From: Acidimicrobiia bacterium
GTDB taxonomy: Bacteria; Actinomycetota; Acidimicrobiia; Acidimicrobiales; VFJN01
Length of the DNA stretch: 64,000 bases
Direction: 5' to 3'
Assembly (NCBI GenBank): GCA_046565645.1
Contig: JBKHYD010000015.1
Coordinates: 114,268 to 178,267, forward strand
Position 1 is the first letter of the stretch. The number at the start of each line of letters is the position of its first letter. The translations under genes and the position numbers were made by a program. Shown here in pieces: positions 10,796-17,721 of the stretch. A model generated the notes under the pieces. It was not told the DNA's origin. It was given only the letters and a program-made list of their open reading frames with translations, and ran no database searches.

Positions 10796-12498
10796 TCAGG
10801 TCTCGGTGGCGTCGAGGATCTCGTCGAGGCGGACGACGTCCTCCTCGGTGATCACCCCGACGTAGCGCTCCCCGTCGCAGACCGCGAGCCGGTCCACGTC
10901 GTGCTCGGCCATGGCCTGCACCGCCCGGGCGACCGTCCACCCTGGCTCGGCCACCGGCAGGTCCGTGCGCATCCGCTCGGCCACCGCGGTGGCGGCCCAG
11001 TCGGCCCGCTCGACCCCGGACAGCTCGTCCAGCCCCACCGTGCCGAGGTACCGGCTCCCGTCGACCACCACCGCGGCGCGCTGCCGGGCGCCCACGAGGT
11101 GGTGCCAGAAGAGCTCGTCGAGGGTGGCGTCGGGCGGGACGGTGCGCGCCTCCGTGTCCACGGCGCTGGCCACCGAGAGCGTCAGCCGGTGCTCGAGGTG
11201 GCCCACCCGACGGCTGGCCTGGTACGGCGTGACCGAGCGGCGGCCCATCACGAGCTGGGCCACCACCGCCGCGATCAGGCCCGGCACCACGAACCCCGGA
11301 CGGCCGGTCGCCTCGGCCACGAACACCACCGCGGCGAGCGGCACGCCGTAGCCGGCGCCGAGGAAGGCGGCGATGCCCACCACCGGGAACAGCGTGGCGT
11401 TGTCGGCGTCGAAGAGCCCGCTGGCCGCCTGTCCGACGAGGAAGCCCTGGAGCACCAGGGGGATGAACAGCCCGCCGACGCCCCCTCCCGCCACGGTGGC
11501 TGCGGTGGCCGCCACCCGCAGCGTGGCCGCCCCGGCGAGGAGCAGGACGCTGTTGTCGCCCTGGGCTGCCCAGCGCATCGTGTCGTAGCCCGCCCCGAGG
11601 GTGAGGTTCGTACCGGCCAGGAGGCGGCCCAGGCCGAAGAGCCCGGCCAGCACGACGCCGGCCACCACCGCCCGCCACCACGGCCCGAGGCGCCCGGCCG
11701 CGCTCTTCGCTGCGGTGATCACCACGGCGAAGAGCCGGGCGAAGCCCCCGGCGAGGAGGCCCACGGCGGCGGCCGCCGCGAGGTCGGGGAGATCGAGCGG
11801 CGGATGGCCCGCCACCGGGAAGAGGGGTTCGGTGCCGATGAGGGCGACGAAGGTGACGTAGCTGGTGGCGGACGCGACGGCGGCCGGGAGGACCATGCGC
11901 CGCGCGAGGTCGTCGTGGTAGGCACCTCGAGCGCGAACACGAGCCCGGTGACGGGGGCCTTGAAGATCGCGGCCACGCCGGCGGCGGCGCCCGCCACGAG
12001 CAGGAGCTTGGCGTCCTCGGTGGTGAAGAACCGGGGCAGTCGCCGCTGGAGCCACGAGCCGATCGAGGAGCCGGCGTAGATCGCAGGACCCTCGTAGCCC
12101 ATCGACCCGCCGAAGCCGAGGGTGGCCACCGCCGCCGCCATGCGCCCCGGCGCGGGCCGGGTGTCGAGGGGGCGACCCTGCTCGTGGAAGCTGCGGACGT
12201 ACTCGTCCGAGGTGGCCGGCGTGGCGCCGCCCGCCAGCCACCGAAGGGCGACACGGGTCAGCAGGAGACCCAGCAGGGGCATGAGCGCGAGGGCCGCCAA
12301 CGGGAGCTCCACCACCTCGGCGAAGATGATCTCGGCGGTGAGCCGCTCGAAGGCGGCCACGACGAGACCGGTGGCAGCGCCGGTGGCGCTGGCCAGGACG
12401 AGCACCTGCTGGGAGCGGCGCCCCGCGACGGCCAGCCGGTGACGGTCGATCGACCATCCTCGGTGCAGTGCCCGTCGGATCGGATCGAGAACGGCCAC
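10796..12498 (-). pseudogene. ClC-family chloride channel/antiporter with C-terminal CBS pair, split by a 1-nt frameshift near 11921
   Basis: N-half (GSMGYEGP, AAIFKAPVTGLVFALEVP) is in ORF 11719..12498; C-half (YHDDL..., GGLFIP, CBS domains) is in ORF 10796..12616; the junction reads GAG GTG CC TAC CAC. Confidence 0.85.
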
Positions 12499-12500
12499 AG

Positions 12501-13496
12501 TCAGATGGTGACGTAGCCGGGGACGCGGTGGTGCGGGGTGTCGAGATGCACCTTCGCCTCAGGGGGGCTCTTGAACTTCCCATGCGACCACCGCACCTCG
12601 ACGTGTCCCGAGACACGACGGTTCACCCCACTCCTCAGCTCCTCGACCTGAGCGCTCCAGGTGACGACGGGCTGGTCGCTGGCCTGGGTACCCACCTGGA
12701 AGCCCGTGAGGCGATAGCGCTGTCGCCAATCCCATGGCGTCTCCACTCTGAGACGAAGCGTGTGGGCCTTGTCTGTACCGAGCACGAAGTAGGGGGCACT
12801 ACCGATTCGGAGTAGCCGCCAAAGCAGCTGCTCCGGCGTCCGGGCACTGGCGAGCGCGTCCTGCCATCGCTGGGCGGTCCTCGACGCCACTACCGAGGCG
12901 AAGCGACGGGCGTCGGACCGGAGCTCATCCGGCCATCGCTTGGCCAATGCCAGGGCAAGCGCTCTGCGATCGTCCGATGTCAGCCGATCGAACCCCGAGA
13001 ACGGAAGACCCACGTGGCGACAGGCGGCGCCGCAGAGCTCGTCCAGCTCGTCGCCGGCGACCGTTCGGTACCAGTCGACTCCTCGAAGGCCCTGGCCACC
13101 TGCCAGCAGGCGGTCGAACAAGTAGTGCGGTGAGGCGTTCAAGACGATTCTCGACAGGTACTTGCAGGAGACCAAGTAGACGTGGTCAACCCGAAGGTCG
13201 GCGGGCACCGCCTCATCACCAGGTGACCGCGTTGCCCCCTTCCACTCGACGATGCGCGGCACACGACCTCGTAGACCGTCGTCCGCCTCGAGGAATGCTC
13301 GGCCGTTGGTCCACGCCGCTAGGAACTCGGCGCGCATAGCGCCCCCGACATAGAGGGACCGAAGCAGACCCCACAACTCCGGGGACACGCTCACCATCTC
13401 CCGTGGTTCGCGGTGGATGGCTTCCTCAGGCGAGTCATCCCCGAGCATCCCCAGCCCGGTCATCAGTTCAGTGACGATGGTCTTCCTGGAGGCCAG
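12501..13496 (-). CDS. Putative PD-(D/E)XK-like restriction endonuclease
   Basis: VPADLRVDHVYLVSCK resembles a D...SxK nuclease core; same operon as a DNA methyltransferase; start either CTG 13496 after GAGGAG or ATG 13463. Confidence 0.6.
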   Translation of the reverse strand: MASRKTIVTELMTGLGMLGDDSPEEAIHREPREMVSVSPELWGLLRSLYVGGAMRAEFLAAWTNGRAFLEADDGLRGRVPRIVEWKGATRSPGDEAVPADLRVDHVYLVSCKYLSRIVLNASPHYLFDRLLAGGQGLRGVDWYRTVAGDELDELCGAACRHVGLPFSGFDRLTSDDRRALALALAKRWPDELRSDARRFASVVASRTAQRWQDALASARTPEQLLWRLLRIGSAPYFVLGTDKAHTLRLRVETPWDWRQRYRLTGFQVGTQASDQPVVTWSAQVEELRSGVNRRVSGHVEVRWSHGKFKSPPEAKVHLDTPHHRVPGYVTI

Positions 13497-13499
13497 CTG

Positions 13500-13820
13500 T
13501 TACTCCTCGTCGTCGAACAGTGGCGAGAACTGGAGCTCGGTGGCTGCGAACTCGACATCGCGAGCCGTGAAGAGATCCTCGGAGGCGTAGACGTCGACCT
13601 CAACCTCCATGGCATCCATCCATGCATAGACCGCGTCCGCCCAACGCTCCTCCAGGAGGGCAGCACGAAGCTCGTCTCGCAGCGCCGGTTCGAGCTGCGC
13701 TGCCGGAGTTCGGGCGACCAGACGGAGGGCAAGGACCCAGTTCATGATGTCCATGTCCTCGGCGATGAAGACCGACGGCGGGTCATCCCGGACTACAGCC
13801 ACCGATACGATGCGCGGCAC
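13500..13820 (-). CDS. Small acidic hypothetical protein (~106 aa)
   Basis: GTG 13820 lies 1 nt after the MTase stop; fills the gap between MTase and nuclease-like genes. Confidence 0.65.
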   Translation of the reverse strand: MPRIVSVAVVRDDPPSVFIAEDMDIMNWVLALRLVARTPAAQLEPALRDELRAALLEERWADAVYAWMDAMEVEVDVYASEDLFTARDVEFAATELQFSPLFDDEE

Positions 13821-13821
13821 T

Positions 13822-15384
13822 TCAGGATGTCCTCCGCAGGTCCTTTTCTCGCCAGAACCCGAGCAAGGGCAAGCCATCCGCACTGAAGCCGCCAGCGGCG
13901 TAGTGGCGAAGTCGATTGAAGTCCTCGCGACTCTCCATCTCGATCACGTCGAACACGGAGCTTTGCCCGACTGCACGTAGTGCCACATCCCCCTCGCTCC
14001 CAGGCCGTGGCAGGTGTGACGACATCAGCACATACGGCACCCCGGCCAGCTCTTTCGCCGAGTGGCGGTTCGAGGCCACCACGTGAGCACGGCCCAGTGC
14101 CTTCCACACAGTGTCGGTCCGCAGCAGACCCCCGCGCGTGGTGGTGTAGGCGCCCGATACGTCGAAGTACCAGGGCGTTCCTGATGCGTCCCTGGCAATG
14201 ATGTTCACAACCACTCCGAGGCCGCGCAGCCGAGTGTTGCGCTTGGCGATCTCGAAGCCAGCGGCCTCCAGCAGTTCAGCCGCATACTGCTGCGCCGCGA
14301 GGCCCTCTTTCGATGCTCGAGCCTGGAAATCGTCCTCCACGGAAGGTGCCGGTGCGGAGGGAACGGCAGTTCCCGTCTTCGGGCTGACCATCTCGCCCAA
14401 CGGCCGTTCCGCAACAACGGCCTCAACGCGACCTCGTGCGATGGCGACGTACTCCGGGTCTAGGTCATAACCGACGTACCGCCGGCGCCACTTGGCAGCT
14501 GCAGCGAGGCTCGTTCCTGAACCCATGAACGGGTCGAGAACGAGGTCGTCTTCATACGTGTAGAGGTGGATCAGCCGCTCGGGCAGCTCGATGGGGAATG
14601 GCGCAGGGTGACCAACCCGCTTCGCCTGTTCGGGCTGGATCTTCCACACGTCGAGCGTGGCTTCCATGAACTCGTCGGTGTTGAGCGTGTTCCGGTGGGG
14701 AAGCGGTGGTTCATGCCGCTCCCGATCCTTCACTGGGATGGCTCGGTCAAATCGGCCCTTGCTTGCGATCAAGACCCTCTCGGTCAGATCCCGGAGCACC
14801 GGGTTAGCCGCGCTTCGAAACGATCCCCAGGCGCAGGACCCAGCAGCTCCCTCTCCCTTCTGCCAGATGACCTCCCCTCGCATGAGCATGCGCAGGTCGT
14901 CTTGAAGGATCGTGATGACGTCGGCAGAGAGAGACCGGTAAGGCTTCCTACCGAGGTTCGCGACATTGATCGCCATTCGACCGCCGGGCTCGAGCACTCG
15001 GTAGCACTCCTCGAGGACGCCCCGCAGCATGTCGATGTACTCGGCATACGTCGTCGGAACACCCTCGCGGTCGAGCTCCTCCTCGTACTGCTTGCCGACG
15101 AAGTAGGGGGGGGATGTGACGACGAGAGCCACCGAAGCGTCGGGGAGGGGGTTGGGGTCGGACCTGATGTCATGGTTGCGGAAGGGCTCCTCGACGACGA
15201 AAGGCCCGTGGATCTCCGACGACCGATCAATCAGCGGTGCCGTGAAGCGGCCGTAGAAGCCGCTGGCGTCGTGGTTCTCGCGCCGGGACACGCCGAAGCT
15301 CGACGTGGTGGTGCCCCGTCTGCGCTGCGCGCTCGGCTCCGCGCCTCCGGCCACTGCTGCCAACCCTCTCGTCGATCGCGCCAC
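13822..15384 (-). CDS. Amino-DNA methyltransferase (beta class, N4-C/N6-A type) with C-terminal degenerate YraN/PD-(D/E)XK-like domain
   Basis: VVTSPPY (motif IV), HPAPFP, LDPFMGSGTS (motif I) in beta order; 3' part of track ORF 13822..17346; TAGGGT 7 nt upstream of the GTG. Confidence 0.9.
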   Translation of the reverse strand: MARSTRGLAAVAGGAEPSAQRRRGTTTSSFGVSRRENHDASGFYGRFTAPLIDRSSEIHGPFVVEEPFRNHDIRSDPNPLPDASVALVVTSPPYFVGKQYEEELDREGVPTTYAEYIDMLRGVLEECYRVLEPGGRMAINVANLGRKPYRSLSADVITILQDDLRMLMRGEVIWQKGEGAAGSCAWGSFRSAANPVLRDLTERVLIASKGRFDRAIPVKDRERHEPPLPHRNTLNTDEFMEATLDVWKIQPEQAKRVGHPAPFPIELPERLIHLYTYEDDLVLDPFMGSGTSLAAAAKWRRRYVGYDLDPEYVAIARGRVEAVVAERPLGEMVSPKTGTAVPSAPAPSVEDDFQARASKEGLAAQQYAAELLEAAGFEIAKRNTRLRGLGVVVNIIARDASGTPWYFDVSGAYTTTRGGLLRTDTVWKALGRAHVVASNRHSAKELAGVPYVLMSSHLPRPGSEGDVALRAVGQSSVFDVIEMESREDFNRLRHYAAGGFSADGLPLLGFWREKDLRRTS

Positions 15385-15492
15385 ACCGTGGACCCTACGC
15401 AGGGGGTGTGACGGCCAGCGCCACGCTACCGACCGGCGCGCGCGGCCGCGAGCACCCGGTCGCCGTCGATGGGCCCAGGGGGCGCCCGGTAG

Positions 15493-17721
<2,229 letters not shown>

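Follow-up and report, generated by a model that had tools for sequence, protein, structure and literature searches.

A near-core N4-cytosine-type methyltransferase of the Acidimicrobiia with a facultative, uncharacterized partner, and exchange of the module for a distant allele

Systems that join a DNA methylase to a partner protein are already known, as are solitary methylases carried by a whole bacterial class. CcrM and Dam are the textbook examples of the latter, DNA methylases that are fixed in an entire class; the former include the Type II restriction-modification operons built around β-class N4-cytosine methyltransferases (PvuII, BamHI, SmaI/Cfr9I), enzymes for which the motif SPPY is the typical form. 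Here we describe a locus that resembles both, located in a stretch of 64,000 nucleotides (hereafter “the window”) from the genome of an Acidimicrobiia bacterium (assembly GCA_046565645.1, contig JBKHYD010000015.1, positions 114,268 to 178,267). The Acidimicrobiia, to which the wastewater organism Microthrix belongs, are a large group with mostly uncultured members. At positions 12501-15384 of the window, on the minus strand, three co-directional open reading frames (ORFs) encode a β-class methyltransferase (M), a small acidic protein and a third protein, which we call X. An original prediction, made from the letters of the window alone, had described them as a three-gene restriction-modification-like operon of unusual architecture; the three ORFs were found where it had placed them and, since all three genes are conserved across many genomes, they are not chance ORFs.

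The reading that we prefer, and to which we attach about even confidence, is that the three genes form an ancient restriction-modification-like module whose methylase has been domesticated; in the window it is present as a horizontally acquired replacement allele, with X as a facultative nuclease partner and the acidic protein as an optional modulator. In molecular terms, M is a near-core, single-copy, N4-cytosine-type β-class methyltransferase that most likely writes a class-wide CGCG mark, and X would most likely be a divergent PD-(D/E)xK-type endonuclease cutting unmethylated target DNA; in the genomes that hold X, the pair would act as a Type II restriction-modification system. The small acidic protein is an optional third part, possibly modulating either X or the C-terminal domain of M. 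In the window's genome, the resident M-X pair was exchanged, by homologous recombination, for the lower-GC three-gene version of a distant lineage. The distribution of the two genes, the synteny, the exchange with its chimeric M and the depletion of CGCG in genomes with M are shown by the sequences; the CGCG specificity, the nuclease activity of X and the function of the small protein are inferred. What stands out against the systems already described is the combination of a near-core N4-type methylase with a facultative uncharacterized partner, two orphan folds, a CGCG signature tied to one gene, and a mapped in-place exchange that left a chimeric methylase behind.

M and X across the Acidimicrobiia

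M belongs to the β class on two grounds: residues 85-316 match PF01555 above its curated cut-off (E = 8e-41; 140.8 bits vs. 26.7), and motif IV (TSPPYF, at about residue 90) stands ahead of motif I (DPFMGSG, at about residue 283), the order that the original prediction had reported. The PADLOC model for Type II methyltransferases (MTase_II) also matches, at 1e-84, and the relatives of M among PDB sequences include N4-cytosine methyltransferases, M.PvuII and TTHA0409 of Thermus thermophilus HB8 (PDB 2ZIE). Among solved structures, the last of these comes closest to the catalytic domain (E = 1.5e-31); unlike M, it has only 297 amino acids and no C-terminal domain. In M, residues ~340-520 form an extra basic domain (pI 9.0) that is 33-61% identical between lineages and may have an α-β-β-β core.

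The original prediction had also placed a second, dead nuclease fold on M, and this found no support. The candidate, YraN/UPF0102 (PF02021), was rejected: its match to the C-terminal domain reaches 13.3 bits against a cut-off of 23.6 (E = 0.11), spans ~33-45 residues, and occurs in the window's protein alone (1 of 23 homologues, the other 22 having none). Comparison of the domain with the genuine YraN proteins of this lineage by hhalign gave a probability of 10% over 29 columns, and in the alignment the position of the YraN ExK reads D-V-S/T. A genuine YraN gene is encoded elsewhere in these genomes.

In an even sample of 301 Acidimicrobiia genomes from 151 genera, M was found in 265 (142 genera), streamlined genomes of ~1 Mb included, and nearly always as one orthologue in a single copy; the sporadic, mobile distribution typical of Type II restriction-modification systems was not seen for M. 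X was found in 55 genomes (40 genera), all 55 of which also carry M, and the remaining 210 of the 265 genomes with M have no X. Among 41 relatives, M was present in 39 (57-67% identity), as a single gene with two matches only where the copy is split, and X was present in 28. Of 84 related loci, ~62 have M directly upstream of X and ~16 have an X with no M beside it; 14 of 15 genomes with such an unlinked X encode an orthologous M (55-65% identity) elsewhere. The adjacency is kept across two deeply diverged subfamilies of X, the sister subfamily (35-40% identical to the window's X) likewise lying downstream of M. Co-occurrence across genomes had been proposed as a check on the original prediction, and for M and X it holds; that the two are a functionally linked methylase-partner pair is supported.

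Decayed copies of X stand beside an intact M in three genomes, being truncated in G212, split in G338 and interrupted by an in-frame TGA stop in G263. M extends to a second lineage of the Actinomycetota (22 sampled genomes), from which X is absent but for one remnant outside the Acidimicrobiia, a stretch of 105 residues directly after M in G366 (locus L181, G366:C65:18361-18672). The DNA downstream of M in two M-only genomes (G028 and G035) held nothing nuclease-like. A tblastn search of X against phage and plasmid collections gave no match, nor did any other search return a copy on a mobile element. The simplest history is that of an old M-X pair from which X has been lost many times while M was retained.

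Set beside the Type II operons of PvuII, BamHI and SmaI/Cfr9I, the locus is alike in having an SPPY methyltransferase directly upstream of a basic, PD…xK-like protein of ~330 amino acids, in a partner that never occurs without its methyltransferase, and in the frequent loss or decay of that partner while the methyltransferase stays. It is unlike them in that M is near-core and vertically inherited in a whole class, with a locus syntenic across the genus, in that X falls in no known endonuclease family, and in that the extra gene encodes an acidic protein rather than a helix-turn-helix (HTH) controller. The likeness to CcrM of the Alphaproteobacteria and Dam of the Gammaproteobacteria lies elsewhere: M, too, is single-copy and nearly universal in its large clade, exceeds ordinary housekeeping enzymes in conservation and has no nuclease partner in most genomes (210/265), and like CcrM it is a β-class enzyme with a C-terminal extension. 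Unlike CcrM and Dam, it has the N4-cytosine-type SPPY in place of DPPY and a dedicated downstream partner in about one-fifth of the genomes. If our reading is true, the M family would be the cytosine-N4 counterpart of CcrM and Dam in the Acidimicrobiia.

As a side observation, two loci labelled “uncultured Burkholderiales bacterium” (L018 and L026) carry typical Acidimicrobiia M-X modules that are nested in Acidimicrobiia clades of the X tree; these are probably mis-binned contigs.

A distant allele at the resident locus

All 24 genomes of the same genus contain both M and X. In the seven same-genus loci that were checked, the gene order was in each case that of the window, with FolD, MetF and isocitrate dehydrogenase (IDH) on one side of M-X and aldehyde dehydrogenase, with or without intervening ClC and YbaK genes, on the other; the proteins that flank the module are 72-93% identical to those of the window. 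Among the genus copies M (87-93% identity) exceeds IDH (75-82%) in conservation, and X stands at 75-86%. The window's own copies fall outside these ranges for the module and within or near them for its neighbor: compared with the genus copies, M is 64-69% identical and X 50-54%, vs. 74-85% for IDH. The module is also AT-richer than its flanks, as the original prediction had observed (64.8% GC vs. 72.8% and 71.7%, with 72.8% for the whole genome). Since the resident modules of the same genus are themselves GC-rich (72.5-76%), the gene family as such does not account for this low GC content. A maximum-likelihood tree places the window's X in a clade of 15 metagenome proteins (support 100/98), ten of which are known to share their contig with the small gene, and this clade is far from that of the genus (100/99).

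The boundaries of the exchange can be placed on the sequence. Nucleotide identity to relatives is 78-94% from the start of M to ~15223, falls to 40-73% beyond that point, and recovers near 12560-12465; in a sliding-window comparison with one same-genus locus (L091) it is back at 65-86% from ~12560-12465 on, and the GC profile agrees. On the other side, the region between icd and M is 66-73% identical to the same-genus loci nearest icd (15508-15422) and 86-94% identical nearest the start of M (15421-15323). Within M, residues 1-54 (15384-15223) are 85-87% identical to the genus copies and 57-65% identical to copies of the three-gene type, an order that is reversed for residues 55-330 (62-64% to the genus copies and 70-73% to the three-gene type) and likewise for the C-terminal domain, which is nearer to the three-gene type. 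Because of this switch in identity at ~15223 (codon 54), M is a chimera, with codons 1-54 of the resident genus type and the remainder foreign. One crossover lies in the conserved 5' block of M (directly after …ENHDASGFYGRFTAP) and the other at the junction of X and ClC, and the window's copy is a foreign, divergent allele brought in by homologous recombination. This makes the locus a clean example of in-place replacement, in which recombination within the methylase gene substituted a distant allele for a methylase-partner module, and it bears on the domestication of restriction-modification systems and on the turnover of their alleles.

A different view of the same cassette, close to what the original prediction had proposed, would be that of a self-contained, mobile three-part defense or epigenetic system, in which a methyltransferase bearing a dead nuclease domain is combined with a small subunit and a Cfr10I-like nuclease. 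The cassette is indeed foreign and AT-richer in the window's genome, and its three genes do travel together within one clade; but it came in by allelic replacement where M-X was already in place, the small gene is missing from most loci (it is present in ~14 of the 84 related loci, scattered over the X tree), and PADLOC recognizes the methyltransferase and neither of the other two proteins. Moreover, X has no Cfr10I-type similarity and its SxK is not conserved (see below), and the dead-nuclease domain is unsupported. We consider this view very improbable. A new mobile island is not what is found at a locus where M is near-core and single-copy in the class and M-X is syntenic across the genus, and the extra small subunit, which does form part of one version of the cassette, is an optional one.

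The interval between X and the aldehyde dehydrogenase gene varies within the genus: locus L091 has both ClC and YbaK, L095 has ClC, L092 has YbaK, and L093, L094, L096 and L097 have neither. Since gene content here differs within the genus, the right flank of the module is a variable spot.

The probable target, protein X and the small protein

A metaepigenomic survey detected methylated CGCG and BAAAA in all of its Acidimicrobiia genomes and in no other actinobacterial class, and the BAAAA methylases were assigned experimentally in the same survey (PMC8919816). An SPPY enzyme found class-wide fits N4-methylcytosine (m4C) at CGCG, which makes M the candidate enzyme for this mark, and the genomes carry an independent signature in their depletion of CGCG. 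In the window's genome, the observed-to-expected ratio (O/E) of CGCG is 0.68, the second lowest of the 4-bp palindromes after CTAG. Across 23 genomes, sampled at ~30-100 kb each (mostly 80 kb), the mean CGCG O/E is 0.71 in the 16 genomes with M vs. 0.92 in the seven without (one-sided Mann-Whitney p = 1.2e-4, not corrected for phylogeny). The depletion tracks M within one family (f19; 0.59 and 0.61 with M vs. 0.98 and 0.93 without) and within one genus (g24; 0.65 and 0.74 with M vs. 0.90 without), and the O/E of GCGC and CCGG does not differ between genomes with and without M. The target of M, as judged from these genomic data, is probably CGCG, methylated to m4C. In the genomes that lack M, CGCG stands near its expected frequency.

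X is a basic protein (pI 9.2) with more than 3576 homologues, all of them unnamed and none with a Pfam domain, which form 647 clusters at 50% identity in a library of 1.84 billion representatives. A family search with X gave no match in Pfam, NCBIfam, PADLOC or PHROGs, and no consistent family emerged when 39 X proteins were scanned one by one at E ≤ 10. Neither phmmer nor a profile hmmsearch with X returned anything relevant from the PDB sequences, and a homology search started from a divergent X subfamily led only to further hypothetical proteins of the Acidimicrobiales. The AlphaFold2 model of X, built from 39 homologues (predicted local distance difference test, pLDDT, 86; predicted template modeling score, pTM, 0.79), begins with helices, continues through a short β meander (72-110) and a helical middle part, and ends in an antiparallel sheet. 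Foldseek found no match to it in the PDB at E ≤ 0.001 (best E 0.018, all spurious), and no restriction enzyme was among the top 50 PDB hits. Three uncharacterized viral proteins of 331-571 amino acids (BFVD A0A8D9C8Y9, A0A7D7JQW9 and A0A1J0F9H5) have the whole predicted fold of X, with Foldseek E values of 8e-7 to 6e-4 and probabilities of 0.99-1.00 at 10-13% identity.

The polar residues and motifs that are invariant in both subfamilies of X are E73, P87-x-D89, K101, N109, R216, R219, E289, R-W-S-H-G (291-295) and P-E302-x-K304; D83/E84, D93/H94, D245, H287 and D308 are not kept across the subfamilies. E73, PxD89 and (S/Q)xK101 sit on the predicted β meander, after a helix, and on this pattern and the model X is plausibly a PD-(D/E)xK-type nuclease. 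The original prediction had seen in X a PD...SxK variant, written as PADL-x7-SCK, where the actual spacing is PADL-x8-SCK; a PD-(D/E)xK-like arrangement, E…PxD…(S/Q)xK, is indeed kept, but the serine is not, as SCK becomes QAK in the sister subfamily (S99 to Q).

In Cfr10I, NgoMIV and Bse634I (PD…SxK…E), as in HinP1I and MspI (D…Q/NxK), the acidic residue of (D/E)xK is replaced by S, Q or N; X, with SCK in the window's subfamily and QAK in the sister subfamily, is like these enzymes in this respect. It is unlike them in the spacing from D to K, which is 12 residues in X and ~20-55 in those enzymes. Unlike the Cfr10I-type enzymes in particular, X has no conserved SxK with a Glu ~14 residues downstream, and its putative helix acid at +16, D/E117, is not invariant (G or Q in 2 of 39 members). 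The Cfr10I/NgoMIV/Bse634I-like nuclease of the original prediction finds no support, as phmmer, profile and Foldseek searches gave no similarity in sequence or structure and the serine gives way to Q. HinP1I/MspI (PF11463) matched none of the 39 X proteins at E ≤ 10 and was absent from the Foldseek top 50; the family had no match in the window's genome or in 400 other Actinomycetota, with the control genomes silent too.

Having no recognizable DNA-binding or nuclease domain and a fold that is unmatched among solved structures, X could also be a protein that does not act on DNA at all, an unrelated enzyme or structural protein merely co-transcribed with M. We give this a slim chance at best, given the strict co-occurrence of X with M even where they are unlinked, the preservation of their adjacency in two deeply diverged subfamilies, the basic nature of X, and its invariant acidic, lysine and histidine residues, which are typical of a metal-dependent enzyme.

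The small protein is as acidic as originally described (pI 4.05; 24 D+E vs. 8 K+R) and has 59 homologous clusters, all hypothetical, with no Pfam, NCBIfam, PADLOC or PHROG family. Folded alone, it gave an AlphaFold2 model with a pLDDT of 90.8 and the order β-β-α-α-α-β, for which Foldseek found no fold match in the PDB (best E 0.69). An HTH controller (C) protein was considered and rejected, in view of the pI of 4.05, a search of 30 members that found no HTH family, and a predicted fold with no match in the PDB. Homologues of the small protein are 73-81% identical on contigs where X is only 61-67% identical. Since it is acidic between two basic neighbors, more conserved than X, and scattered on the X tree, we infer a modulator role, possibly exerted on X or on the C-terminal domain of M, both of which are basic. 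X and the small protein each define a protein family with a confidently predicted fold and without known relatives, and neither could be assigned to a family in any of the public libraries searched (Pfam, NCBIfam, PADLOC, PHROGs).

Several observations count against taking M and X as a restriction-modification pair. In the model of X, confidence is lowest over the putative catalytic stretch (pLDDT 57-77), and no link between X and a nuclease came from Pfam, NCBIfam, PADLOC, PHROGs, the PDB sequence and profile searches, or Foldseek against the PDB. For the CGCG specificity, the evidence is a correlation together with a survey of other genomes. A restriction system would not usually be near-core, syntenic across a genus and conserved at a housekeeping level. 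Finally, the depletion of CGCG is the same in genomes with X (0.72) as in those with M alone (0.71), so that it follows the methylase and cannot be credited to restriction by X.

The main alternative, to which these last observations point and which is unlikely in our judgment, is that M is a housekeeping epigenetic methylase of the CcrM/Dam kind and X a reader or effector of its mark, either a MutH-like methyl-directed nickase serving in repair or a SeqA-like factor acting on hemimethylated CGCG. As with Dam-MutH and Dam-SeqA, a housekeeping methylase would then be accompanied by an accessory PD-(D/E)xK-type protein that has no use in the absence of the mark. In favor of this reading, M is near-core and exceeds IDH in conservation; X equals IDH in its conservation within the genus (75-86%), has a fixed locus, and always depends on M; the depletion tracks M and not X; and neither tblastn against phage and plasmid collections nor the other searches gave a mobile-element copy of X. 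However, X is patchy (40/151 genera) and has been repeatedly lost or has decayed while M stays, which is usual for restriction genes and would be unexpected of a core repair factor; its neighborhood showed no partner repair genes, and neither role has fold evidence. MutH, unlike X, shares its distribution with MutS and MutL and lies away from dam, whereas X adjoins M and is patchy. Since X needs M under both readings, presence-absence data cannot separate restriction from a reader or effector role: the patchiness and decay of X favor restriction, and the fixed locus, the housekeeping-level conservation and the X-independent depletion favor the reader or effector.

A broader picture, more speculative and decidedly unlikely as a whole, would be that of a class-wide m4C epigenetic system at CGCG, comparable to CcrM and Dam and shared by the Acidimicrobiia and the second Actinomycetota lineage. 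In it, X would have a nuclease or reader fold not seen before, common to it and a few phage proteins, and would act on the mark in restriction or in methyl-directed repair; the acidic protein would serve as a DNA-mimic-like safety catch on X or on the C-terminal domain of M, permitting the exchange of whole cassettes between lineages, as in the window's genome.

Gene layout and neighboring genes

The features of the module are collected in Table 1.

Table 1. Features of the M-X module and its borders, in window coordinates.
Feature	Position	Strand	Remarks
M, β-class amino-methyltransferase	13822..15384	-	520 aa, GTG start
M catalytic domain	14437..15132	-	motif IV TSPPYF, then motif I DPFMGSG
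M C-terminal domain	13825..14367	-	~180 aa, pI 9.0; from alignment of homologues
Small acidic protein	13500..13820	-	106 aa, GTG start; optional third cassette component
X, candidate nuclease partner of M	12501..13496	-	320 aa from ATG 13463, or ~331 aa from CTG 13496
Right-hand recombination boundary (approximate)	12465..12560	.	X 3' end / ClC start
icd-M divergent intergenic region, resident type	15385..15501	.	from nucleotide identity to same-genus loci

The original prediction had given gaps of 1-3 nt between the three genes. Between M and the small gene the gap is indeed 1 nt (TGA a GTG), but the first canonical start of X (ATG 13463) lies 36 nt past the TAA of the small gene, and a gap of 3 nt is obtained only if X starts at CTG 13496, which retains the conserved N-terminus TIVTELMTGLG. 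The small gene and X share one frame (13463-13502) with the single TAA between them, and the 12 codons after this TAA encode the conserved N-terminus of X and contain no ATG, GTG or TTG. Because these codons, between the TAA and the ATG (…ASRKTIVTEL-M-TGLGMLG), match the N-terminus of X homologues (MADLRTTVTELVTGLGMLG), X may start at CTG 13496 or may recently have lost its start codon.

A ClC-type chloride channel gene (10796-12498, minus strand) begins 2 nt beyond the stop codon of X, so that the tight packing extends past the three genes. Its reading frame changes at ~11920, with residues 1-193 in one frame and 194-570 in another, at the point where …GAGGTGCC is followed by TACCAC… and where ALEVPY is read in relatives; a base is apparently missing here, and the gene could be either a recent pseudogene or the product of an assembly error. 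The intergenic region between icd and M presumably holds promoters; a scan for promoter and terminator consensus sequences gave nothing, with no sigma-70-like consensus in this region. The frame of M stays open for ~650 more codons upstream of its start (13822-17346, minus strand), antisense to icd, an artefact of high GC content that is misleading for ORF callers as to where M begins.

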